Source: Christensenella sp. UBA767
GTDB lineage: Bacteria > Bacillota > Clostridia > Christensenellales > CAG-917
DNA length: 35,795 nucleotides
Reading direction: 5' to 3'
NCBI GenBank assembly: GCA_002297185.1
Contig: DBJV01000071.1
Span: forward strand, 1-35,795
Below the pieces are notes generated by a model. The model was not told the DNA's origin and searched no databases. It was given only the letters and a program-made list of their open reading frames with translations. The position numbers were made by a program, and so were the translations under genes. Below are positions 1,562 to 26,632 of the stretch, one piece after another; position 1 is the stretch's first letter, and each line of letters begins with the position of its first letter.

Positions 1562-2471
1562 TTGAAAGACCTCCCATAAGCGAAATAAACGTTGATTCCA
1601 AATCACCTTGGCATTGCATGATGTTGAGAACGGGTACGTTGGCGTCTGCAAACATCTTGGCGACTTCGGGAATGCCTTTTGACAAGTCGTAAAGCGCGAG
1701 AGTGTTGTAGGGGAGTATCTCGAAATCGTGCGCGTGGTAATTTTCTACCACGACGTTGAGTGCGACTTTCAAATCTCCCACGACGACTTTGATATAAGGG
1801 CGGCAAAGTTCTTCGAGGTCGCTACCACGCATTTCTTTGACGAGTTTTCCGCCTTCGATGACGCCGTAACTGTTGGCAAGCTTTGCAAGTTCGCTCAAAA
1901 TGTGCGAGGAAATGAGGATTGTGACCTTATCTTCACGGTTTAGCCTGCTTAAAAGTTCTCTCACTTCAAAAATGCCCGTGGGATCGAGTCCGTTGACAGG
2001 CTCGTCGAGAATAAGTATTGACGGATTGCCTATGAGCGCAACTGCGATTGCAAGGCGTTGTTTCATGCCAAGCGAATAATTCTTGACTTTGGTCGGGCTG
2101 TCGGGATCGAGTCCGACTTTGTGAAGAAGTTCCTTCAATGCGTTTTCGTCATAAATTCCCAATGCGAAAGCGACCGCTTTCATATTGTCAAGAGCATTCA
2201 TATGCAAGAGCAGGGAAGGGTTGTCGACGATAGAGCCGATTTTCTTGCGTTCGTATGCCAAAGCGTCGGCGGACTGCGAGCCGTTGATTTTCACTTCGCC
2301 TCTGTCTTGTTTTGCAAGACCGAGAAAAATTCTGATAAGTGTGGTTTTGCCTGCGCCGTTTCTGCCGACAAGACCGTATATTTCGCCTTCGCGTACCGTA
2401 AGGTTTACGTCGTCGAGTATGACTTTTTTGCCGTACGATTTGCAAAGATGCGAGGTTTCAAATACGTTCAT
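1548..2471 (-). CDS. ABC transporter ATP-binding protein
   Basis: Walker A GRNGAGKTT, signature YSLGMKQR, Walker B ILILDEP. ATG at 2471 is preceded by GAGGT. Confidence 0.9.
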   Translation of the reverse strand: MNVFETSHLCKSYGKKVILDDVNLTVREGEIYGLVGRNGAGKTTLIRIFLGLAKQDRGEVKINGSQSADALAYERKKIGSIVDNPSLLLHMNALDNMKAVAFALGIYDENALKELLHKVGLDPDSPTKVKNYSLGMKQRLAIAVALIGNPSILILDEPVNGLDPTGIFEVRELLSRLNREDKVTILISSHILSELAKLANSYGVIEGGKLVKEMRGSDLEELCRPYIKVVVGDLKVALNVVVENYHAHDFEILPYNTLALYDLSKGIPEVAKMFADANVPVLNIMQCQGDLESTFISLMGGLSNEQK

Positions 2472-2498
2472 TTTGTACCTCAATGTATTGATATAGAT

Positions 2499-2527
2499 AT
2501 TGTATCACATAAAGAGAAAGAATACAA
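2499..2527 (-). promoter_or_regulatory. Candidate promoter of the ABC operon
   Basis: On the minus strand: TTGTAT, 17 nt, TACAAT with an upstream TG (extended -10). Confidence 0.4.
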
Positions 2528-2587
2528 CTTTCCGTAAAAATCACGCAAAAATATTAAATAATACAAATCGTGTATCGATATTCTACA

Positions 2588-2683
2588 ACACATATCGTGT
2601 TATTTGTCGTTATAAAATACACGAAAAGTGTGCGCAAATGCTAAAACATGTGAAATTTTTGCCGAATAACACACGATAAGTGT
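2588..2683. promoter_or_regulatory. Three ACAC-N5-GTGT inverted-repeat motifs (candidate operator/activator sites)
   Basis: acacatatcgtgt 2588-2600, acacgaaaagtgt 2619-2631, acacgataagtgt 2671-2683. Start-to-start spacing is 31 and 52 bp. Confidence 0.3.
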
Positions 2684-2798
2684 ATTTTTTGCTATAAATA
2701 ATGACGAATGCCTTTTAATAACAGAGTGGCGCAATTTTTAATTATTCAAGCGAAAAAGAAAGAATAAATTTTTGACAGATACGGCTAAATTTGACAAC

Positions 2799-2823
2799 GA
2801 AAAAAGCGACCGTGAATGGTCGT
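2799..2823 (-). terminator. Rho-independent terminator downstream of tRNA-Gly
   Basis: Minus strand reads cgacc-attcac-ggtcg followed by CTTTTTT. Confidence 0.5.
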
Positions 2824-2826
2824 TTG

Positions 2827-2900
2827 TGGAGCGGGCGATGAGAATCGAACTCACGACTAAAGCTTGGGAAGCTTTCGTTTTACCATTAAACTACGCCCGC
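2827..2900 (-). tRNA. tRNA-Gly (anticodon CCC)
   Basis: Reverse complement gcgggcgtagtttaatggtaaaacgaaagcttcccaagctttagtcgtgagttcgattctcatcgcccgctcca. Cloverleaf folds by eye: 7-nt anticodon loop ttCCCaa, GTTCGATTC T-loop, encoded CCA. Confidence 0.9.
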
Positions 2901-2913
2901 AGGTTACGCTATG

Positions 2914-2941
2914 ATTTTAGCACAAGGGCAAAATTTGTCAA
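2914..2941 (-). promoter_or_regulatory. Candidate promoter of tRNA-Gly
   Basis: Minus strand has TTGACA, 16 nt, TAAAAT, ending about 13 nt before the tRNA 5' end. Confidence 0.45.
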
Positions 2942-3036
2942 ACGAATTGAGTAATTTGCCTTTTGGCGTTTTTATCGTTTGGTGCTTGTAACGCATACGG
3001 TTTTTGACGATTGTTTAACAATTGCTCCGTTATCGG

Positions 3037-3065
3037 TTGATTTTTTGTTATTTTGAGTTTATACT
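3037..3065 (+). promoter_or_regulatory. Candidate ileS promoter
   Basis: TTGATT (3037-3042), 17 nt, TATACT (3060-3065). This implies only a ~25-nt leader. Confidence 0.4.
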
Positions 3066-3097
3066 TATTTTATCTTAAGATGATTTTGAGGAATTAT

Positions 3098-6000
3098 ATG
3101 TACAAACCTGTAGAAACAAATCTTAATTTCGTTGACAGAGAAAAAGAAGTTCTCGAATTTTGGAAACAAGAGGACATTTTCAAAAAGAGCGTTGAAAAGA
3201 ATGAGGGCAATCCCGAATTCAGTTTTTACGACGGACCGCCGACGGCAAACGGCAAGCCGCACATCGGGCATATTCTTACCCGTGTTATGAAAGACATTAT
3301 CCCTCGTTACAAGACGATGAAGGGATATCACGTTTTGCGTAAGGCAGGCTGGGACACTCACGGACTTCCCGTAGAACTCGAAGTCGAAAAAATGCTCGGC
3401 ATAGACGGAAAACAAGAGATTGAAAAGTATGGCATCGAGCCTTTTATCAAAAAGTGCAAAGAATCCGTATGGAAATACAGCAACGAATGGCGCAAAATGT
3501 CCGACCGTATAGGTTATTGGGCGGATATGGACAATCCCTACGTCACGTACGATAACAACTACATCGAATCGGTGTGGTGGGCTATCAAGCAAATGGCGGA
3601 CAAGGGACTTATCTACAAAGGCTACAAAATCGTGCCTTATTGTCCTCGTTGCGGAACGGCTCTTTCTTCTCACGAAGTGGCGCAAGGCTACAAGGACGTG
3701 GAAGAGACTTCCGTATTCGTCAAATTTGCGCTCAAAGACGTGGAAAACACTTATTTCCTCGCTTGGACAACGACGCCTTGGACGCTTCCGTCCAACGTTG
3801 CGCTTTGTATGAACGGAAAAGAGGATTATACCAAGATTAAAGTTGGTGACGAGTATTATATACTCGCCGATGCGCTTATTCCGACGTTGTTTGAAGAAGG
3901 CAACTTTGAAAAAGTGGATACCAAGAAGGGCAGCGAGTACGAATACACCGAGTATATTCCGCTTTTCGATTACGAGACGGGCGCAAAGGAAAAGGCGTAC
4001 TATATCGTCAACGATTCTTACGTAACTCTTACCGACGGTACGGGTATCGTTCATATTGCTCCTGCATTCGGCGAGGACGACAGCAAGGTCGGCAAAAAAT
4101 ACAATCTCCCGTTCGTTCAAATGGTTGACGACAGAGGCAGATTCAAAGACGCAGTATATGATTTCAAGGGACTTTTCTGCAAGGACGCGGACAAGTACAT
4201 CATCGAGAAATTGAAGGGTGAAAACAAACTTTTCAAGACGCTCAGATTTACCCACAGTTATCCGTTCTGCTGGCGTTGCGATACTCCGTTGCTTTACTAT
4301 GCACGTTCAAGCTGGTTTGTGAAGATGACGGCGGTCAAAGAACAACTTCTCGTCGCAAACGATTCCGTAAACTGGATGCCCGATACCATCAAAAACGGTC
4401 GTATGGGCAACTTCCTCGAAAACGTCATTGACTGGGGCATTTCCCGTGAAAGATATTGGGGTACTCCGCTCCCGATTTGGGTGTGCAACAAGTGCGGAAA
4501 GATTCACGTTATCGGCTCGAGAGAGGAATTGCGTGAAAAAGCGCATCTCGACCACGACGTTGAATTGCATCGTCCGTATATCGATGAAGTTAAGTGGGAA
4601 TGCGAGTGCGGCGGAGAGATGGTTCGTACTCCCGAAGTGCTTGACTGCTGGTTCGATTCCGGTTCAATGCCGTTTGCACAATGGCATTATCCGTTTGAAA
4701 ATAAGGAAACGTTTGAAAAAGTGTTCCCTGCGGACTTCATTTCCGAGGCTATCGACCAAACGAGAGGCTGGTTCTATACCTTGCTTGCGGTCAATACGGT
4801 GCTTTTCGGACGCGCGCCTTTCAAAAACTGCATAGTTTTGGGACACGTCAACGACAAAGACGGCATCAAAATGTCCAAACATAAGGGCAACGTCGTAGAT
4901 CCGTGGACTGTTCTCGACAAGCAGGGCGCTGACGCTACGAGATGGTATTTCTATACCACCAGCGCGCCGTGGCTCCCGTCACGTTTCCATGCAGACACCG
5001 TAAGCGAGTCTCAACGCAAGTTTATGGGTACGCTTTGGAATACCTATGCGTTCTTCGTTCTCTATGCGGAAATCGATAAATTCAATCCCATGGAGCATAA
5101 ACTCGAAGATCAGCAATTGACGACTATGGACAAGTGGATTTTGTCAGGTCTCAATTCGCTCATCAAGTTCGTTGACGAAGGACTTAACGAATACAAGATC
5201 ACGGAGACTTCTCGTGCAATCGGCGACTTTGTGGATATCCTTTCCAACTGGTATGTACGCCGTTCGCGCGACCGTTTCTGGGGCAGCGATATGTCAAAGA
5301 ACAAAGAGGCGGCTTATACAACGCTTTATACCGTCCTTTCCACGTTGAGCAAGATTATTGCGCCGTACGTTCCGTTTATGGCGGAAGAGATTTATCAAAA
5401 TCTCGTGCGCAACTTCGATAAAGACGCACCCGAAAGCGTGCATCTTTGCTCTTTCCCCGTGGCAGACGAGAAGATGATCGATAAGAAACTCGAGACAGGC
5501 ATGGGCGACGTGCTTAAACTCGTCGTACTCGGCAGAGCCGCAAGGAACAAGTCCAACCTCAAGAACAGACAACCGCTTGCAAAACTCTTCTATAACGGCA
5601 GATACGAACTCCCGCAAAGCCTCAAAGAACTCGTCGAGGACGAACTCAACGTCAAGTCGGTCGAAGTTTCGGATACCAGCGACGGATTTATCAATTACGA
5701 ACTCAAGCCGCAACTTAAGACGCTCGGCCCCAAATACGGCAGTTTGCTCGGCGCAATCAGAAACGTATTGCAAGAGCGTGCTAGCGAAATCGTAGCAGCG
5801 GTCAAGAGAGGCGATTTGTTCAAATTCAACGCAAACGGCAGAGACGTCGAACTTTCGCAAGACGACTTGCTTATCAGCATGAAGAATAAAGAAGGATATT
5901 CCAGCGAAAGTGACGGAGAAACCACCGTTGTTCTCGATACCGCACTCAACGAAGAGCTTATTCTCGAGGGTGTGGAAAGAGAAATTGTATCAAAGATACA

Positions 6001-16102: not shown

Positions 16103-19100
16103 TTGTTGAATTTTGTCAAAATCGAGGCGAGAGGTTTCAAATCTTTTGCCGACAAAATCGAAATTCCGTTTCAGGAAGGCGTAACCGCGATTATCGGACC
16201 TAACGGGTGCGGTAAATCTAACGTTGCAGACGCTATCCGCTGGACTTTGGGCGAGCAGAGCGCAAAGTCTTTGCGTGGTAAGAACATGCAGGACGTTATT
16301 TTCGCGGGTACGGAAAAGAGGAAGAGTATGTCGTATTGCGAGGTGTCGCTCACTTTCAACAACTCCGACCAACACATTTTCCCGTCAATGCCTTTCGACG
16401 AAGTGGTTATCACTCGTAAACTTGACAGGAGCGGACTTAGTGAATACTACATAAATCACAATCGCGTTCGTATGCGCGACATCATTTCCCTTTTCCACGA
16501 CACGGGTATCGGTAAGGAAGGCTATTCCATTATCGGACAGGGCAGAGTTGCCGAGATTATGTCGGCAAAGCCGGGCGACCGTCGTCAGATTTTCGAAGAG
16601 GCGGCAGGTATTTCCAAATTCCGCGCGCAACGCACCGAGGCGGAAAGAAAACTTGAAAAAACCGCTCTCAATCTCGAGACGGCAAACCAAGTTATCGAGG
16701 AAATCCAACGCCAAATCAATCCTTTGCGCAAGCAAGCCGAGACCGCTCAAAAGTACTTTGAACTCAAAGAGGAACTCAAAAAGAATGAGGTCAACCTCTA
16801 CATTTACAATTACGAGAACAATCAAAGCATTAAGCAGCGCATTTACGACCGTCTTTCCGTGTGCGAAAAGGACTTGAAAGTCAAGGAAATGCAATTCAAC
16901 GAGTGCGTCAAAAAGTACGACGATTGCATTAGGGAGTCCGCAGGTATCGACCGTATATACGACGAGTGTAACGGCGAATTGCTCACACTCAAAGTCGATG
17001 CTGCAAGGCTGGAAGGCGAGGCAGGCGTTTTGAGAGAGCGTATCAGCCACATTCAAGGCGAAATCACCCGTCTTAACAGCGAACTTCAATCCATCGACAA
17101 CCAACTCGACATCTCCGCGCAACTCATCGCAAAGGCGGAAGAGAAGAAGAACGCCGAGTTCCAAGTCTATCTCGAAACGAGCAAAGAGGCAGAGGCTCTC
17201 CAACAAAAATATTCGCTTATCACCAAGTCGCTCGCAGGTGCGGAAACCGACCTCGAGACGAGAAACAGCGAGTATATCCGCTCAATGGAAGATCTCGGCG
17301 TACTCAAATCCAATCTTTCGGGTTTCATTGCCGAAAAGGGTATAAACGACGAGCGCGCAAAGACGTTGCTTGCTCTTGTCAATCAACAAAAAGCACGTCT
17401 TGACGAGGAATTGACCAATCTTGCCATATACGACGGCAACGTCAAATCCACCAAAGAGCGCATGCGCAATCTTATGACCGAGTACAACGAGGCTTTATCC
17501 ACAAAGCTCGAAAGTCAAGAGGCAATCAAAGGCTATGCGGAAGATATCGTCAGCCTCAACGCAAAACTCGGTTTGGCAAAAGGTAATCTCGACTTGCTCA
17601 CGTCGGTGAAGAACGAATATTCAGGGTATCAAGAGTCTGTAAAACGCCTTATGCAAGACAGCAAACACGATCCCGTGCTTGCGTCCAAGATCTGGGGCGT
17701 TTTGGCGGAAGTCATCACCGTTCCGACGGACTTTGAGGCAGCAATCGAGTATTCTCTGGGCGCAAACATGCAAAACGTACTCGTTGAAAGCGAGCGTGAG
17801 GCAAGCGACCTTATCAACTACCTCAAACAAAAGGGTTACGGGCGCGTTACGTTCCGTCCGCTCACGTCCTGCCGTCCTCGCACGCTTACGCCCGAGAACA
17901 GAGGCATATTGACGGAGCCGGGCTGCTACGGACTTGCAAGCGACCTTGTGAAATGCGATAAGAAGTTTGACAAATTCGTGCAAACGCTTTTGGGTGCAAC
18001 GGTCGTTGTAAACAACATCGACAACGCTATCCGCATTTTCAGAAAATACAACCAATCGGTGAAAATCGTCACTTTGGACGGCGAAATTTTTGCTACGGGC
18101 GGTGAAATCACCGGTGGTTCGAGAAGAACGCAAACCCGAGGTTTGCTCACCCAAGAGGCAAAAATCGAGCAAGCGCAAGCCAACCTCGAGAAAATCAAAA
18201 ACAACATCGCGCTCCTCAACTCTCAACGTGAAGAAAGCGAGCAGGAATTGAGCGATTGCGAGGCAAGAATCGAGGCTCTCAACAAAGAGATGAGCGAATT
18301 GCGCATAGAGAACGGTCTCAACGAGGACAAGGCAAAACAATCCTTTGAAGTCACCGAGTCCTTGAAGGTGGAGATTTCCAAAAACGCCGAAGAGTACGAA
18401 ATCGTCAAAGCGCGTATTAAGGAACTCGAAGAGAAAATAAGTTCTATTGACCAACTTGAAAAAGTCGTGTCCGAGAAGAGAGAAGAGTACAACGCATTAC
18501 TCGCAAGCTCCAAGAGCGTCAGCACCGACCAAAAGAGCGAAAGAGAGCAAATGGCGGAGCAAGTGACGGAAATCAAAGTCAAACTTGCAGGACACAAGAG
18601 CGTCCTTGACGGCATCGACAACGATTTGTTCAGATACAATCGTGACAGAGAGCAGTTGGAGGACGAAAAACTCGACATAATCGCATCCCTCAAGCATGAA
18701 CAACAGAATCTCGACAACATCCACAATGCCCCCGAGAAAACGACGTTCTCCAAAGAGGACGAGGCGCGCATATCCGCACTCGAAAAGCAAATATCCGATT
18801 TGAGCGAGCGCAAACGCACCATATCCGACGAAATCGTTTCTTTAGACCAAGAGAAAACGAGATTGTCCGATGAGCGTTCCGCACTCAACGAAAAGAAAGT
18901 GCGCGACGAGGCTATGCTCGAAAACGTGGATATCGAAATCCGCAACCAACAAACGCACATCCTCGAAGAATACGATTTGACGTACGCAAGCGCCGTTGAA
19001 TTCAAAGATCCCGAATTCAAAGCCTACGGCGCACTCACCGTCATATCCGATTTGAAGAAGTCAATCAACCGTCTCGGCGACGTCAACCCGCTTGCACTTC

Positions 19101-19693
19101 AAACGCTCAAAGAAACAGAGGAAAGATTGCAAGAGCAGACCGTTCAACGCGACGATATCCAAAAGGCATACGACGATATCGTCACCATTATCAACGAGTT
19201 GACGGGCGAGATGCAATCCAAATTCACGGGTGCATTCGACCAAATCAGCGAGAACTTCAAAGAGGTGTTCCAACAACTCTTTGGCGGTGGTAAAGGCGAG
19301 TTGCGCCTCAATATGCAAGACACTGATGACGTGCTTGAGGCAGGTATCGACATCTACGCCCAACCCCCGGGAAAGAAATTGCAAAACATCAGTCTTTTGA
19401 GCGGTGGCGAACAAGCGTTGACGGCTATCTCGATCCTGTTTGCTATCCTCAAACTTAAACCGATGCCGTTCTGCGTGCTTGACGAAATCGAGGCAGCACT
19501 CGACGACGCCAACGTCAACTTGTTTGCGGAATTTCTCAAAAAATTCAGCGACTACACGCAATTTATCGTCATCACGCACAGAAAACCGACCATGCGCCAC
19601 GCAGATACGATTTTCGGCGTTACGATGGAAGAGAAGGGCGTCACCAAGATCGTCTCCATCGAGTTTGAAGAGGCGGCCAAACACGCAAAATAA
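16103..19693 (+). CDS. smc: Chromosome segregation protein SMC
   Basis: Walker A GPNGCGKSN, long coiled coils, hinge, signature LSGGEQALTAI and Walker B FCVLDEIEAALD. TTG start 9 nt after AAGGTGG. Confidence 0.95.
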   Translation: MLNFVKIEARGFKSFADKIEIPFQEGVTAIIGPNGCGKSNVADAIRWTLGEQSAKSLRGKNMQDVIFAGTEKRKSMSYCEVSLTFNNSDQHIFPSMPFDEVVITRKLDRSGLSEYYINHNRVRMRDIISLFHDTGIGKEGYSIIGQGRVAEIMSAKPGDRRQIFEEAAGISKFRAQRTEAERKLEKTALNLETANQVIEEIQRQINPLRKQAETAQKYFELKEELKKNEVNLYIYNYENNQSIKQRIYDRLSVCEKDLKVKEMQFNECVKKYDDCIRESAGIDRIYDECNGELLTLKVDAARLEGEAGVLRERISHIQGEITRLNSELQSIDNQLDISAQLIAKAEEKKNAEFQVYLETSKEAEALQQKYSLITKSLAGAETDLETRNSEYIRSMEDLGVLKSNLSGFIAEKGINDERAKTLLALVNQQKARLDEELTNLAIYDGNVKSTKERMRNLMTEYNEALSTKLESQEAIKGYAEDIVSLNAKLGLAKGNLDLLTSVKNEYSGYQESVKRLMQDSKHDPVLASKIWGVLAEVITVPTDFEAAIEYSLGANMQNVLVESEREASDLINYLKQKGYGRVTFRPLTSCRPRTLTPENRGILTEPGCYGLASDLVKCDKKFDKFVQTLLGATVVVNNIDNAIRIFRKYNQSVKIVTLDGEIFATGGEITGGSRRTQTRGLLTQEAKIEQAQANLEKIKNNIALLNSQREESEQELSDCEARIEALNKEMSELRIENGLNEDKAKQSFEVTESLKVEISKNAEEYEIVKARIKELEEKISSIDQLEKVVSEKREEYNALLASSKSVSTDQKSEREQMAEQVTEIKVKLAGHKSVLDGIDNDLFRYNRDREQLEDEKLDIIASLKHEQQNLDNIHNAPEKTTFSKEDEARISALEKQISDLSERKRTISDEIVSLDQEKTRLSDERSALNEKKVRDEAMLENVDIEIRNQQTHILEEYDLTYASAVEFKDPEFKAYGALTVISDLKKSINRLGDVNPLALQTLKETEERLQEQTVQRDDIQKAYDDIVTIINELTGEMQSKFTGAFDQISENFKEVFQQLFGGGKGELRLNMQDTDDVLEAGIDIYAQPPGKKLQNISLLSGGEQALTAISILFAILKLKPMPFCVLDEIEAALDDANVNLFAEFLKKFSDYTQFIVITHRKPTMRHADTIFGVTMEEKGVTKIVSIEFEEAAKHAK

Positions 19694-19884
19694 TCCTAGA
19701 TTATTTGCGCCGAATGCTAAACACGCAAAATAATCGTTGCATAGGCAACGACATCGCACCGTTCGGTGCAACGTCGAGAGCCTTGCTTGATTATTTTGCC
19801 TCTACCGCGCAACCGATATATGCTATCAGAATAAGACGGATAAAAACTCCTGCCGCAGTTTCGCTATATCGCTTGCTTGGTGTG

Positions 19885-20023
19885 TGCGCACTTCGTGCGT
19901 ATATGGAATATTCCATAACTTGTGCCTTTGGCACAAATATCACTCTCGCTTTGCGAGAATATCACTTGCGCTTTGCGCAAATATCACTGCGACGAAGTCG
20001 CAATATCACTCCCAATAGTGATA
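19885..20023 (+). repeat. Hairpin/AATATCACT phased array 1 (4 exact 9-mers, 22-bp period) with palindromic leader
   Basis: 9-mers start at 19936, 19958, 19980 and 20002. Intervening hairpins are tgtgcc/ggcaca, ctcgc/gcgag, tgcgc/gcgca and gcgac/gtcgc. Leader is TATGGAATATTCCATA (19902-19917). Confidence 0.9.
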
Positions 20024-20036
20024 AAATAGGTGAGTT

Positions 20037-20930
20037 ATGAACTTTTTTCAAAAAATCATACAAGGTATAAAAAAGACCAAAGACGCGTTCTCAAAAAAGT
20101 TGTTCTTTGCGTTTTCCGCAAGGGAACTCGATGACGAGTTCTATGAAAATCTCGAAGAGGCTTTGTTGACGGCAGACGTTGGCGTTACGGCAACGGAAAA
20201 TCTTATCGAAGAACTCAAAAACGAGATTTTTGAAAAGAAAATCAAAAAGCCCGAAGATGCAAAAGAACTGCTTATCAATCTTATGATTGAGGACATCGAT
20301 TACGACATCCCCGAATATGAATATCCGCTCGTCATCCTGCTTTCGGGCGTGAACGGCGTTGGCAAAACCACCGCTATCGGCAAACTTGCGCATTACTTCA
20401 AAGAGCAGGGCAAGAGTGTTGTCGTTGCAGCAGCCGATACCTTCAGAGCCGCCGCAAGCGAGCAACTTGAGGTATGGGGACAACGTGCAGGCGTCAGAGT
20501 CATCCGTCACAACGAGGGCGCAGATCCTGCCGCTGTCGTATTCGATGCAATCTCTTCCGCAAAAGCCAAAGGCAACGACGTCATTTTGGTCGATACCGCA
20601 GGTAGACTCCACAACAAGAAAAACCTCATGGCGGAACTTCAAAAAATCTGTCGTGTCGTTGAGCGTGAATTGCCAAATGCCGACTTCCGCAAATACCTCG
20701 TTCTCGACGCAACGACGGGACAAAACGCCGTTGCGCAAGCGGAAATTTTCAGCGAAGATATCGACACCGACGGCATTATCCTCACCAAACTTGACGGAAC
20801 CGCAAAAGGCGGCGTAGTCCTTGCCATAAGCGAGGAAATCGGCTTGCCTGTGGTGTACGTAGGCGTGGGCGAGGGGATTGATGATCTTATTCCGTTCGAC
20901 GCCAATGACTTTATCCGAGCTTTGTTTTAA
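20037..20930 (+). CDS. ftsY: Signal recognition particle receptor FtsY (short NG-type)
   Basis: GVNGVGKTT, DTAGRL and TKLDGTAKGG motifs. RBS is AGGTGA. Confidence 0.95.
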   Translation: MNFFQKIIQGIKKTKDAFSKKLFFAFSARELDDEFYENLEEALLTADVGVTATENLIEELKNEIFEKKIKKPEDAKELLINLMIEDIDYDIPEYEYPLVILLSGVNGVGKTTAIGKLAHYFKEQGKSVVVAAADTFRAAASEQLEVWGQRAGVRVIRHNEGADPAAVVFDAISSAKAKGNDVILVDTAGRLHNKKNLMAELQKICRVVERELPNADFRKYLVLDATTGQNAVAQAEIFSEDIDTDGIILTKLDGTAKGGVVLAISEEIGLPVVYVGVGEGIDDLIPFDANDFIRALF

Positions 20931-21052: not shown

Positions 21053-21144
21053 GTTTCTCGTGTGGGGTATGGAGTGAAAAAATATTTATTCCATACATTA
21101 TGATAATACAATTTATATTTATATAAAATCAATAAAAATATCAG

Positions 21145-21179
21145 GGTGTCGAGCAAAAACGCTTGACACCTTTGTTTTT
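21145..21179 (+). terminator. Rho-independent terminator after ftsY, overlapping the ylxM -35
   Basis: ggtgtcgag / cttgacacc stem (one G-U pair) followed by TTTGTTTTT. Confidence 0.55.
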
Positions 21180-21191
21180 GAAGAGTATTAT
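21163..21191 (+). promoter_or_regulatory. ylxM-ffh promoter
   Basis: TTGACA (21163-21168), 17 nt, TATTAT (21186-21191). Confidence 0.5.
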
Positions 21192-23939: not shown

Positions 23940-24659
23940 ATGAAATTTGACGTATTGACGATATTTCCGCAATATTTCGACGTCCTCAACGAAAGCCTTT
24001 TGGGAAAGGCAATCGAGGGGGGCAAATTTTGCGTTGACGTCGTAAATATCCGTGATTTTTCAAAGGATAAACACCTCAAAACCGACGATACCCCGTACGG
24101 TGGCGGTGCAGGCATGGTTATGACTCCCGACCCCATCGTAAGCGCGATAGAGGCGGTCGATCCACACCACGAGGCTTGGCGCGTGTATATGTCGCCAAGA
24201 GGCACCGTTCTCAATCAAGCCAAAGTCGAAAGCCTTGCCAAAGAAAAGCGCATTTTGATTTTGTGTGGCGATTACGAGGGCGTTGACCAACGTGCAATCG
24301 ACATCTGCATTGACGAGGAATTGTCCATAGGCGATTACGTGCTTACGGGCGGTGAATTGCCTGCTCTTGTTACGATAAACTGCGTTGCGAGATACATCGA
24401 CGGCGTTCTCGGCTCGGACGAAAGCACCAAGGAAGAAAGTTTCTCCAACGGACTTTTGGAATATCCGCAATACACCCGTCCCGAAGTGTATAGAGGTTAC
24501 GCCGTTCCCGAAGTATTGCTCGGCGGCAACCACAGCGACATTGAAAAATGGCGTCTTGAAAAGTCTCTCGAAGTTACGATGAAACGTCGCCCCGACCTGT
24601 TCCGACATCTCGATTTAGGCAAATTCCTGCCAACCAAGAAAAGAAAACGCAATCGTTAA
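23940..24659 (+). CDS. trmD: tRNA (guanine37-N1)-methyltransferase
   Basis: DDTPYGGGAGMVM and LSIGDYVLTGGELPA motifs. Confidence 0.95.
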   Translation: MKFDVLTIFPQYFDVLNESLLGKAIEGGKFCVDVVNIRDFSKDKHLKTDDTPYGGGAGMVMTPDPIVSAIEAVDPHHEAWRVYMSPRGTVLNQAKVESLAKEKRILILCGDYEGVDQRAIDICIDEELSIGDYVLTGGELPALVTINCVARYIDGVLGSDESTKEESFSNGLLEYPQYTRPEVYRGYAVPEVLLGGNHSDIEKWRLEKSLEVTMKRRPDLFRHLDLGKFLPTKKRKRNR

Positions 24660-24660
24660 A

Positions 24661-24775
24661 CGATATCGGAATTTTCCGCAACTCGCACGAAGTGCGAATA
24701 TCACTTTTAGCCGAAGGCTAAAAATATCACTCTCGCAAAGCGAGAATATCACTTGCGCTTTGTGCAAATATCACT
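24661..24775 (+). repeat. Hairpin/AATATCACT phased array 2 (4 exact 9-mers)
   Basis: Leader is atatCGGAATTTTCCGcaact. 9-mers start at 24697, 24723, 24745 and 24767. Hairpins are cgcac/gtgcg, tttagcc/ggctaaa, ctcgc/gcgag and tgcgc/gtgca. Confidence 0.9.
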
Positions 24776-24849
24776 TTTCTCTAAATTGCCATGAGAAATG
24801 TTTATTTACTCCTCGCAATTATATTGGATAAAAGTAAAAGGATTTCGTT

Positions 24850-25692
24850 TTGAACATACAATGGTTTCCCGGTCATATGACCAAGGCGATAAGAATGATG
24901 GAGGACAATCTCCGTCTTGTCGATGCGCTAATATACGTAATCGACGCAAGGGCAGTTTACTCTTGCGATAACCCTCTTTTCAACAAACTTTTGCAAGGTA
25001 AGAGGGTACTTTACGTATTCAACAAGTGTGATTTGGTGGAAAAATCCGACCTTGACGCATGGTGCGAACTTTTCAAAAAGCAGGGCAAACCGTATGTCAA
25101 AGCAATCGGCACGAGCGGCGACTGCTCACAAATCGTTGCAGGCTTAAAGCAAGTCGTGTCCGACAAGATCGAAAAATACGCCGCAAAAGGCGCGAAAATA
25201 TCCGTTAGAGCAATGGTTGTCGGTGTTCCCAACAGCGGAAAATCCACAATCATCAACTCAATGGTCAAAAAAGCAAAAGCGGTTACGGGCGACCGCCCGG
25301 GCGTTACGAGAGGTAAGCAATGGCTGTCAATCGACAATGTTGACTTTTTGGACACTCCCGGTACGCTCTGGGGCAAATTCGAAGATCAAAAAGTTGCGCA
25401 TCACCTTGCGTACATCGGCTCAATCAGAGACGATATCCTTGACGAAAGCGAACTTGCATACGATTTCCTCGACGAAATGAAATTGCTTTATCCGCAAAAT
25501 TTGCAACAAAGATACAACTTGCCCGAACTTAAAGAGCAAACGATTGATATTTTTGAAGATATCGCAATGTCACGCGGTTTCAAGGTGAAGGGCAACCAAC
25601 CCGACTACGACCGCACGGCACGAATGATAATCGACGAGTTCCGCAAAGGAAAACTGGGAAAAATGATGTTAGAACGCCCCGCCAAATTATAA
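24850..25692 (+). CDS. rbgA: Ribosome biogenesis GTPase A (YlqF)
   Basis: IQWFPGHMTKA, circularly permuted GTPase motifs NKCDL then GVPNSGKST then DTPG. TTG start after AAAGGA. Confidence 0.92.
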   Translation: MNIQWFPGHMTKAIRMMEDNLRLVDALIYVIDARAVYSCDNPLFNKLLQGKRVLYVFNKCDLVEKSDLDAWCELFKKQGKPYVKAIGTSGDCSQIVAGLKQVVSDKIEKYAAKGAKISVRAMVVGVPNSGKSTIINSMVKKAKAVTGDRPGVTRGKQWLSIDNVDFLDTPGTLWGKFEDQKVAHHLAYIGSIRDDILDESELAYDFLDEMKLLYPQNLQQRYNLPELKEQTIDIFEDIAMSRGFKVKGNQPDYDRTARMIIDEFRKGKLGKMMLERPAKL

Positions 25693-25776
25693 GTGGAGTA
25701 TTCCACAATTTGCACGCGCAGTAACGAAATGGTGGGACACCCACACCCAATGTAAATGCTATGGAATATTCCATTT

Positions 25777-25876
25777 GTCATTCCGAGGGAACGAAGTGAC
25801 CGTGGGAATCCAGCGTAGCGTTATGCGCCTACGGCTAGATTGCCACGTCGCAATATGTATTGCTCCTCGCAATGAC
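25777..25876. repeat. Pair of inverted REP-like palindromic units (BIME-like)
   Basis: Unit 1 (+) is gtcattCCgagg-N12-cgtgGGaatc (25777-25810). Unit 2 (-) is gtcattGCgagg-N17-cgtgGCaatc (25838-25876). The CC/GG versus GC/GC difference is compensatory. Confidence 0.7.
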
Positions 25877-25885
25877 ATAAGGAAG

Positions 25886-26022
25886 ATTGAAATATTCCAA
25901 AACTCGCACAAAGTGCGAATATCACTTTTTGTGAAAGCAAAAAATATCACTTGCGCTGAGCGCAAATATCACTCTCGCAACGCGAGAATATCACTGCACG
26001 TTTAGTGCAATATCGTTTCACT
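25886..26022 (+). repeat. Hairpin/AATATCACT phased array 3 (4 exact 9-mers plus 1 degenerate)
   Basis: Leader is TTGAAATATTCCAAaact. 9-mers start at 25918, 25943, 25965 and 25987, with degenerate aatatcgtttcact at 26009. Hairpins are cgcac/gtgcg, ttttgt-gaaa-gcaaaa, tgcgc/gcgca, ctcgc/gcgag and gcac/gtgc. Confidence 0.9.
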
Positions 26023-26023
26023 T

Positions 26024-26632
26024 ATGGTAAAACCTGAAGAACTAATGACGTATGAAAATCAACTTCTCGACAAAGGTTATCGCTATATTTGCGGCGTCGA
26101 TGAAGTGGGCAGAGGACCGCTTGCAGGTCCTGTTACTTGCACTGCCGTGATTATGGATTTGACCGATTTGATTGACGGCGTAAACGACAGCAAAAAGGTG
26201 AGCAAAAAGAAGAGGGAAAAACTCTTCGAAGTCATCAAATCCAAGGCGATTGCGGTATCCACCGTATCGTACGACAATCACAAAATTGATGAGATGAACA
26301 TTCTCAACGCCACAAAAGCGTGCATGGCGGAGGCAATCATGTCTCTCGACGTCAAGCCGGATATCGTAATCGTCGATGCGTTGCAACTCGATATTCCGTA
26401 TAAAACGTTCGGAATTATCCACGGCGACGCACTTTCTTATTCCATCGCGTCCGCATCCATAATCGCAAAAGTCACGAGAGACACGTATATGGAGAAGATG
26501 GCGCTCAAGTATCCTCAATACGACTTTGAACACAATATGGGTTACGGCACGGCAAAGCATATCGCAGCGCTCAAAGAGTTCGGCGCAACGCCCATTCATA
26601 GAAAGAGTTTTATAGGTAATTTCGTCAAATGA
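26024..26632 (+). CDS. rnhB: Ribonuclease HII
   Basis: GVDEVGRGPLAGPV and DSKK motifs. No SD precedes ATG 26024; an in-frame ATG at 26045 is an alternative start. Confidence 0.9.
   Translation: MVKPEELMTYENQLLDKGYRYICGVDEVGRGPLAGPVTCTAVIMDLTDLIDGVNDSKKVSKKKREKLFEVIKSKAIAVSTVSYDNHKIDEMNILNATKACMAEAIMSLDVKPDIVIVDALQLDIPYKTFGIIHGDALSYSIASASIIAKVTRDTYMEKMALKYPQYDFEHNMGYGTAKHIAALKEFGATPIHRKSFIGNFVK

Follow-up and report, generated by a model that had tools for sequence, protein, structure and literature searches.

Gut-1 (RF01706) is an orphan RNA motif that was described in 2010 from human-gut metagenomes only, where its covariation marked it as a likely non-coding RNA of unknown function (Weinberg et al. 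2010, PMC2864571). It consists of three tandem short hairpins with a conserved GUGAWAU(U) between and around them. The published seed contains AGUGAUAUU repeats, and AAUAUCAC repeats, which belong to the long arm described below, lie unannotated in its 3′ flanks (PMC2864571). The Rfam model does not include an inverted arm, a P0 hairpin or a P1 helix, and it records neither gene association nor mobility. The description of Gut-1 was not found to mention a second arm, P0 or P1, placement at terminator hairpins, strain turnover or an Avd-like gene (Weinberg et al. 2010, PMC2864571).

Gut-1 is the closest described relative of three repeat arrays in the window, by which is meant the whole 35.8-kb stretch of DNA analyzed (35,795 nt). 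The window contains 12 exact copies of the 9-mer AATATCACT, all on the + (coding) strand and in three clusters, as the initial annotation had counted. In dinucleotide shuffles the mean expectation is 0.27 copies, and 12 copies were reached in 0 of 100 shuffles. In each cluster the 9-mers alternate with GC-rich palindromes of 13-17 nt (Table 1). Their spacing is exactly 22 bp in array 1, 26, 22 and 22 bp in array 2, and 25, 22 and 22 bp in array 3. Every array opens with a common leader, GGAATATTCCNNAACT. Its three copies, at 19905, 24668 and 25889, show 0-1 mismatch.

The gene order around the arrays, from NCBIfam assignments, is smc, ftsY, ylxM, ffh, rpsP, rimM, trmD, ylqF, rnhB and yraN. The three arrays have the same orientation as these genes and end 27-75 nt short of start codons. 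The three array-bearing spacers have no detected promoter or terminator on the + strand, so that passive co-transcription with the operon is probable for the arrays; on the minus strand beside them, no promoter was detected either. Elsewhere in the window, the ftsY/ylxM gap holds a strong intrinsic terminator (12-bp stem and T-run) that overlaps a near-consensus sigma-70 promoter (TTGACA-17-TATTAT; 21143-21191), and therefore ftsY and ylxM-ffh are probably separate transcription units. A 43-bp tandem repeat (604-708; 2.4 copies, 95% identical) lies just 3′ of the large SRP RNA gene (226-489) and has no further copy among the loci compared.

Array 1, between smc and ftsY, is the equivalent of the long arm of the Gut-1 composite. 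Its anatomy had been read correctly from the letters of the DNA, namely an invariant 9-mer in 22-bp phase with hairpins that change in sequence and conserve structure, a 16-nt palindrome, four stems (tgtgcc/ggcaca, ctcgc/gcgag, tgcgc/gcgca and gcgac/gtcgc) and an AGTGATA shortly before the ftsY ATG. Only the limits of the first hairpin, cgcac-ttc-gtgcg, had to be moved, to 19887-19899 from 19886-19900. The leader of array 1 is probably the centre of a composite element followed by a degenerate first 9-mer, to judge from centres elsewhere in which GGCGAATAT directly precedes AATATCACT. AGTGATA is probably incidental, because it is not conserved in two of the closest relatives (L121 and L122). 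Array 2 has a G.T pair in one of its stems (tgcgc/gtgca), and array 3 ends in an extra hairpin and a degenerate 9-mer, AATATCGTT (26009-26017), 6 nt from the rnhB ATG. At the position that matches the decayed leader copy listed in Table 1, L121 has atattccgcaact and a hairpin-like sequence.

Table 1. Arrays, leader copies and neighbouring genes in the window
Feature	Position	Strand	Remark
AATATCACT starts, array 1	19936/19958/19980/20002	+	cluster 19936-20010
AATATCACT starts, array 2	24697/24723/24745/24767	+	cluster 24697-24775
AATATCACT starts, array 3	25918/25943/25965/25987	+	cluster 25918-25995
Array 1 leader GGAATATTCCATAACT	19905-19920	+	within palindrome TATGGAATATTCCATA (19902-19917)
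Array 1, four units	19921-20010	+	each a 5-6 bp GC hairpin with 3-nt loop, then AATATCACT
AGTGATA	20017-20023	+	complement of last array 1 9-mer; 13 nt 5′ of ftsY ATG (20037)
Array 2	24668-24775	+	trmD-ylqF spacer; leader GGAATTTTCCGCAACT, hairpin cgcac-gaa-gtgcg, then 4x AATATCACT
Array 3	25889-26017	+	ylqF-rnhB spacer; leader GAAATATTCCAAAACT, hairpin cgcac-aaa-gtgcg, then 4x AATATCACT
Decayed leader copy GGAGTATTCCACAATT	25695-25710	+	directly 3′ of ylqF stop codon
smc	16103-19693		
ftsY	20037-20930		
trmD	23940-24659		
ylqF/rbgA	24850-25692		
rnhB	26024-26632		

All three arrays align to the full 77-position RF01706 model in a relaxed Rfam search (cmscan), each on the minus strand. Array 3 scores 49.2 bits (25939-26018, E=1.1e-7), array 2 45.7 bits (24693-24776, E=8.5e-7) and array 1 35.5 bits (19954-20029, E=3.2e-4). 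The gathering threshold of the family is 50 bits, so that all three fall just below it, a borderline result. In these alignments the three hairpins and four repeats of each array fall on the P1-P3 and the linkers of the model, and the arrays have the tandem hairpins and the GUGAWAU(U) spacing of Gut-1. Homologous arms in related loci exceed the gathering score (50.3-66.8 bits), and in one element (L012) both arms do so, the short arm on the + strand with 59.2 bits and the long arm on the minus strand with 52.0 bits. The hairpins are also homologous slot by slot: slot 1 holds AGCCGNAAGGCT and the last slot CGACGAAGTCG, both in the window and in distant composites. A literature search for the 9-mer sequence returned only irrelevant primer and oligonucleotide matches.

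By their alignment to the model, the window arrays are sub-threshold members of the Gut-1 repeat family and no new kind of system. They share with Gut-1 the tandem short GC hairpins split by (A)GUGAWAUU and hosts among gut Clostridia metagenomes. They differ in that they score just below the gathering threshold, lie on the strand opposite to that called by Rfam, and represent the unannotated long arm, not the published motif. The strand call itself is arbitrary, because a single model matches the two arms of an element in opposite directions. It had been suspected from the window's sequence that the repeat is REP-like or selfish, and this suspicion was well placed; what had gone unrecognized is that the repeat is one arm of a bipartite inverted element of a catalogued family.

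Several other families of repeats resemble the arrays in part. The REP elements and BIMEs of the REP/BIME and RAYT system in Enterobacteria and Pseudomonas are likewise short palindromic units with a constant flank, extragenic and found after 3′ ends or within operons, in tandem and inverted arrangements of strain-variable copy number that may fold in mRNA. However, the units here are 22 bp instead of about 35 bp, and their stems are very diverse. REPs are imperfect palindromes of about 20-40 nt with a 5′ GTAG-type tetranucleotide, whereas the palindromes here are 13-17 nt long and are flanked by AATATCACT. No RAYT was seen among 1459 ORFs from the 119 matches listed, where PF05635 genes alone recur as neighbours. 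The BOX elements of Streptococcus pneumoniae and other modular repeats of Firmicutes are also intergenic and modular, differ in how many internal units they hold, are predicted to form strong secondary structure and have no established mechanism of mobilization. BOX has no sequence similarity to the arrays, however, and its modules of 45-59 bp contain no short invariant spacer in alternation with covarying hairpins.

As in MITEs such as Correia and RUP, the composite element has defined ends, which can be read as inverted repeats (AGTTNTATT ... AATATCACT), and copies are polymorphic for presence and occupy non-orthologous sites. No target-site duplication or parent transposase was found with them, however, and the window copies are single-armed. 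Plasmid iterons are direct repeats of 17-22 bp and share the 22-bp phase, but smc, ftsY, trmD, ylqF and rnhB offer neither a rep gene nor the setting of an origin, and the spacers between the 9-mers are palindromic and variable. The arrays had also been called the reverse of CRISPR architecture. This holds as a description and has no mechanistic support. The repeat is 9 bp (23-47 bp in CRISPR), and the "spacers" are palindromes of 13-17 nt from a small recurring set instead of unique, non-palindromic sequences.

The complete Gut-1 element is larger than either its Rfam model or the arrays of the window. A scan of GTDB, with one genome per species, for two phased 9-mers returned at least 119 matching stretches (L001-L119), nearly all of them in metagenome-assembled genomes of gut or rumen Clostridia (Acutalibacteraceae, Oscillospiraceae and 'Eubacteriales'). 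Most of the matches listed contain a composite element of about 170 bp, in which a terminator-like GC hairpin (P0) is followed by a short arm, a short centre and an inverted long arm. The short arm is the Gut-1 motif and has about four AGTNATATT 9-mers with small hairpins between them, at spacings of 21, 16 and 21. The long arm has four AATATCACT 9-mers with hairpins of 13-17 nt between them, at spacings of 25, 22-23 and 22-25. Among the matches listed the polarity is constant, with [AGTGATATT]n preceding [AATATCACT]n. The window arrays have the long-arm spacing and consist of a short leader and the long arm alone; a search of the window for short-arm or P1 sequence found nothing above chance.

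Composite elements are found in many settings. Their left edge adjoins P0, a variable but compensated GC hairpin of 10-13 bp that is often a textbook terminator. Among the matches listed, 10 of 50 composites lie 35-52 nt (mostly 35-37) 3′ of a co-oriented tRNA or tmRNA gene. The flanks of the composites hold ordinary housekeeping genes that are unrelated from locus to locus, many copies lie at contig ends, and the contexts of Gut-1 family copies are many and unrelated, with both orientations represented (all among the matches listed). By crude ORF calls on the same matches, the orientation of composites relative to the upstream gene is 60 against 26.

The composites that adjoin tRNA or tmRNA genes (L012, L014, L026, L033, L034, L040, L059, L061, L068 and L105) follow many tRNA specificities, and the sole separator between gene and composite is a hairpin of the form AAAAAA-stem-TTTTTTC. 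On the other side, a few conserved types of right-flank module, 80-170 nt long, recur 3′ of the long arm in different species, next to dissimilar genes (L024, L029, L113, L039, L056, L072 and L080; L047, L067, L078 and L118; L013, L093, L115 and L119). Some of these modules are AAAAAGAGAGAG...CTCTCTCTTTTT hairpins, and in those scanned with Rfam (L013, L029 and L056) there was no match at gathering scores. A transposon that carries genes between two arms was considered and rejected, since the candidates (L063 and L042) enclose housekeeping genes only (PNP, an amidohydrolase, an RluA-type synthase and ClpP/ClpX). A phage-borne element was likewise rejected. Among 54 pattern matches in IMG/VR, only one (L203) has palindromic spacers and the hairpin architecture, and the others are unrelated tandem repeats.

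The hairpins of the family are under structural constraint. In a set of 244 distinct hairpins, 90% of the outer five pairs are Watson-Crick, compared to 32% (maximum 37%) when the 3′ halves are shuffled. There are 103 distinct 5-nt stems family-wide, and all four pair types are present at each position. The stems of Gut-1 thus vary in a compensatory manner, and the covariation that had been proposed from the window is real at the level of the family. The caveat attached to it, that few stem types recur, holds within the lineage of the window, which has about 8 stem types among 26 distinct spacers and loops that vary freely. Because few stem types carry many different loops in this lineage, selection on the stems, not mere recent copying, is the likely cause of the pattern. 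The invariant 9-mers and intact stems beside variable loops indicate purifying selection, which may also reflect a host function.

A further helix, P1, closes the composite at long range. The first 9-mer, AGTT[N]TATTCGCC, covaries with the centre, GGCGAATA[N′]AA. In 57 distinct elements, drawn from the 119 matches, from loci on viral contigs (L200-L253) and from PF05635 contexts (L254-L263), the variable pair is T-A in 22, A-T in 19, C-G in 14 and G.T in 2, which amounts to 55 of 57 Watson-Crick pairs with three-state covariation. P1 encloses the Rfam motif. It overlaps the first of the local hairpins in the Rfam model for Gut-1 and is in competition with it. Stem mismatches carry no strand signal, with G.T against A.C at 4 against 8 in the short arm and 9 against 11 in the long arm. 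Because the two kinds of mismatch are about equally frequent, the hairpins reveal neither the functional strand nor whether they fold as RNA or as single-stranded DNA. Nested pairing between short-arm and long-arm 9-mer variants was dropped, since some cases are complementary (L267 and L095) and the overall picture, by eye, is inconsistent.

Orthologous loci were recovered from human-gut metagenomes by means of YlqF; a look-up of the exact YlqF protein of the window returned no record. The arrays are present only in the three closest relatives (L120, L121 and L122, with 100%, 96% and 97% YlqF identity) and are absent at 92% identity or less (L123-L161), so that orthologous sites are polymorphic for their presence. 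Even these three relatives differ in how many units they have and in which hairpins (ctcgc/tgcgc compared to gttgc/gcgac/tgtgc), and array 1 is degenerate in L121 and missing from L122. The arrays entered the three spacers recently, in one narrow lineage, and units of hairpin and 9-mer have been gained, lost and swapped. The smc-ftsY spacer, which measures 15-24 nt in relatives at 71-73% identity, is 327-969 nt long in the clade of the window, and the expansion consists of several different small repeats.

Other repeats share these spacers. Most of the smc-ftsY spacer of the window is occupied by a repeat of about 165 nt (19735-19900), with 23 matches in 14 related loci; it is in tandem in L127, L130 and L132, and L122 has a second copy 3′ of ylqF. 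A MITE-like element of 100 bp (25777-25876) has 12-bp terminal inverted repeats, GTCATTCCGAGG / CCTCGCAATGAC. L120 has this same 100-bp copy at the matching site, and related copies lie elsewhere and in other orientations in the spacers of L121-L123. Further repeats of this type (gtcattc[c/a]gag... / gtcattgcgag...) are found in spacers of L125, L127, L136 and L158.

Comparison of close relatives had been named beforehand as the test that could refute a dedicated function, and its outcome is refuting. The roles in mRNA processing, translational coupling or a dedicated iteron array that the initial annotation had suggested for this operon fail on the missing arrays of close relatives, on the differences in units at 96-97% YlqF identity with the loss of array 1 from L122, and on the many unrelated contexts and both orientations of the family. 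Since they are strain-variable copies of a catalogued repeat that is spreading through intergenic DNA, the arrays are unlikely to be dedicated regulators of smc or ftsY. The same results bear on the broader proposal that the arrays are cis-acting RNA of benefit to the host, which as transcribed stem-loops would stabilize, process or tune ftsY, ylqF and rnhB like the REP hairpins of E. coli operons. Their place on the coding strand close to start codons, in spacers with no detected promoter or terminator, suits this proposal. So do the folding of the region, far better than that of shuffles (z = -6.1), the loops that drift as stems are kept, and the G.T pair of array 2, a G.U wobble in the mRNA sense. 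Against these stand the spacers of relatives that lack the arrays or vary in them, the lack of conservation of the 9-mer/AGTGATA pairing near the ftsY ribosome-binding site, the presence of the same element after terminators and tRNA genes and beside unrelated genes, and the lack of a family-wide G.U excess over A.C among mismatches; we regard such a role as improbable. An independent small RNA gene, the type that Rfam assigns to Gut-1 ('Gene; sRNA'), would run antisense to the operon in the window. It draws on the minus-strand match of the model, the published covariation (Weinberg et al. 2010, PMC2864571), some minus-strand units that are weakly terminator-like and the two exceptions in P1, both of which are G.T in the Rfam sense. 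But composites leave no room for a promoter between P0 and the motif, no minus-strand promoter was detected beside the window arrays, the strand call is arbitrary, a G.U excess is again missing and the arrays vary between strains, all of which makes this reading very improbable indeed.

At the level of DNA, the arrays could be a phased binding site on duplex DNA, similar to iterons or operators, which a protein occupies on one helix face every 22 bp. That protein might be the Avd-like product of the neighbouring gene, regulating its own promoter, or else, on the model of BIMEs, a topoisomerase or a nucleoid-associated protein. The exact 22-bp phase of about two helical turns speaks for such a site, as do the use of the same 9-mer in both orientations within one element, the strand symmetry of the mismatches, the location of elements between an upstream terminator and the next gene, and the promoter that lies over the last 9-mer in the PF05635 modules described below. 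Duplex binding would not explain why more than 240 different spacers are all palindromic, nor the long-range covariation of P1, both of which point to a single-stranded fold, and the spacing of the short arm is not constant; it is on balance unlikely. A single-stranded substrate is the premise of another proposal, in which, as with REP/RAYT or IS200/IS605, a Y1 HUH nuclease recognizes the hairpin, cuts the adjacent 9-mer on single-stranded DNA, and excises and pastes units of hairpin and 9-mer. The layout of a hairpin with a constant flank fits this, turnover between strains involves whole 22-bp units and leaves the phase intact, and the composites are biased in their orientation to upstream genes. 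As a lead only, AGTG/ATATT resembles the CTTG/ATA(TT) nick sites of HUH Rep proteins of the phiX174/pC194 type, a resemblance of 7 bases. Yet no HUH or RAYT gene recurs beside the elements in the approximately 758 kb of loci from the 119 matches listed, the GTAG-type signature of REPs is absent and the units are far shorter than REPs, and we regard this mechanism as improbable.

The most recurrent neighbour of the elements in those loci, from clustering of the 1459 ORFs, is a PF05635 protein of 118-134 aa. In a published analysis, PF05635 (23S rRNA intervening-sequence protein) resembles the DGR accessory protein Avd. All eight PF05635 genes found among the 119 matches listed (L008, L010, L019, L032, L087, L090, L095 and L114) lie directly 3′ of the long arm and are co-oriented with it, and a TTGACT-17-TATAAT promoter usually overlaps the last 9-mer. 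With the exception of one orthologous pair, the flanks of these eight modules are unrelated. In the reverse direction, homologues of the L087 protein (>91% identity) were traced to metagenome contigs (L254-L276) in unrelated contexts. A full element lies upstream of the PF05635 gene in 6 of 6 complete, independent contexts, whose neighbours are GH31, glycosyltransferase, PhoU_div, Iso_dh, Big_3 and one further locus, and several short contigs end inside the element.

This arrangement recalls the intervening sequences of 23S rRNA with PF05635 (S23p/Avd-like) ORFs, in which an Avd-like ORF is also tied to a strongly self-complementary non-coding element. Here, too, the ORF can be present or absent within the same frame. 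L104 (5400-5800) is the L087 module (2330-3120) without the PF05635 ORF, and the two agree in the promoter region and in a conserved stretch of some 60 nt on the 3′ side, AGGGGTATGGGCTTYGCCCGAAGC.TTTGTAATACAAAGGCGAAACT. The differences are that the element lies outside rRNA, that the ORF is 3′ of the inverted arrays and not within them, and that no reverse transcriptase or DGR components were found near the PF05635 modules. There is no PF05635 gene in the window or its orthologous loci. A tentative and rather unlikely reading of the link is that Gut-1 arrays are the cis-acting, single-strand-folded platform of an unrecognized mobile cassette, whose sole protein, PF05635, would bind the hairpin and 9-mer. 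Solo arrays would then be non-autonomous derivatives, spread and remodelled in trans unit by unit.

The explanation that we consider fairly probable is that the arrays are recent, strain-variable, long-arm-only copies of Gut-1, a dispersed, modular and probably mobile intergenic repeat of uncultured gut and rumen Clostridia, and that any effect on the operon is probably incidental. The family may propagate as a selfish or non-autonomous repeat, in which the unit recognized on single-stranded nucleic acid would be a 9-mer adjacent to an extruded hairpin, and the repeated 9-mers could supply microhomology for the turnover of units. In the window, the arrays would be co-transcribed with the operon and fold as stem-loop arrays in its mRNA, and an effect on the stability or translation of ftsY, ylqF or rnhB, if any, would be a by-product. 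The best lead for a trans-acting factor may be the PF05635 Avd-like four-helix-bundle protein encoded 3′ of some full elements. The analysis turned up neither a transposase nor a target-site duplication nor a clean empty site, and by inspection no direct repeat flanks the boundaries of 52 oriented composites among the matches listed, so mobility is deduced only from presence/absence and non-orthologous contexts. Also against this explanation count the orientation bias of the composites, which a purely neutral repeat does not need, the co-orientation of the window arrays with the genes so near their start codons, the purifying selection on 9-mers and stems, and the lack of a PF05635 gene in the window and its orthologous loci.

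As regards the window, the analysis does away with an attractive but mistaken view of the arrays, that of a regulator peculiar to the operon for smc-ftsY and ribosome biogenesis. For the Gut-1 motif, it provides an anatomy and a natural history, which include an inverted bipartite element, a covarying closing helix, a position just behind terminator-like hairpins, some of which follow a tRNA or tmRNA gene, and turnover between strains. It also provides a concrete candidate protein partner in PF05635. Stand-alone PF05635 (Avd-like) proteins are abundant and, like Gut-1, have no known function. A fixed link between Gut-1 and PF05635 makes both functions experimentally approachable.
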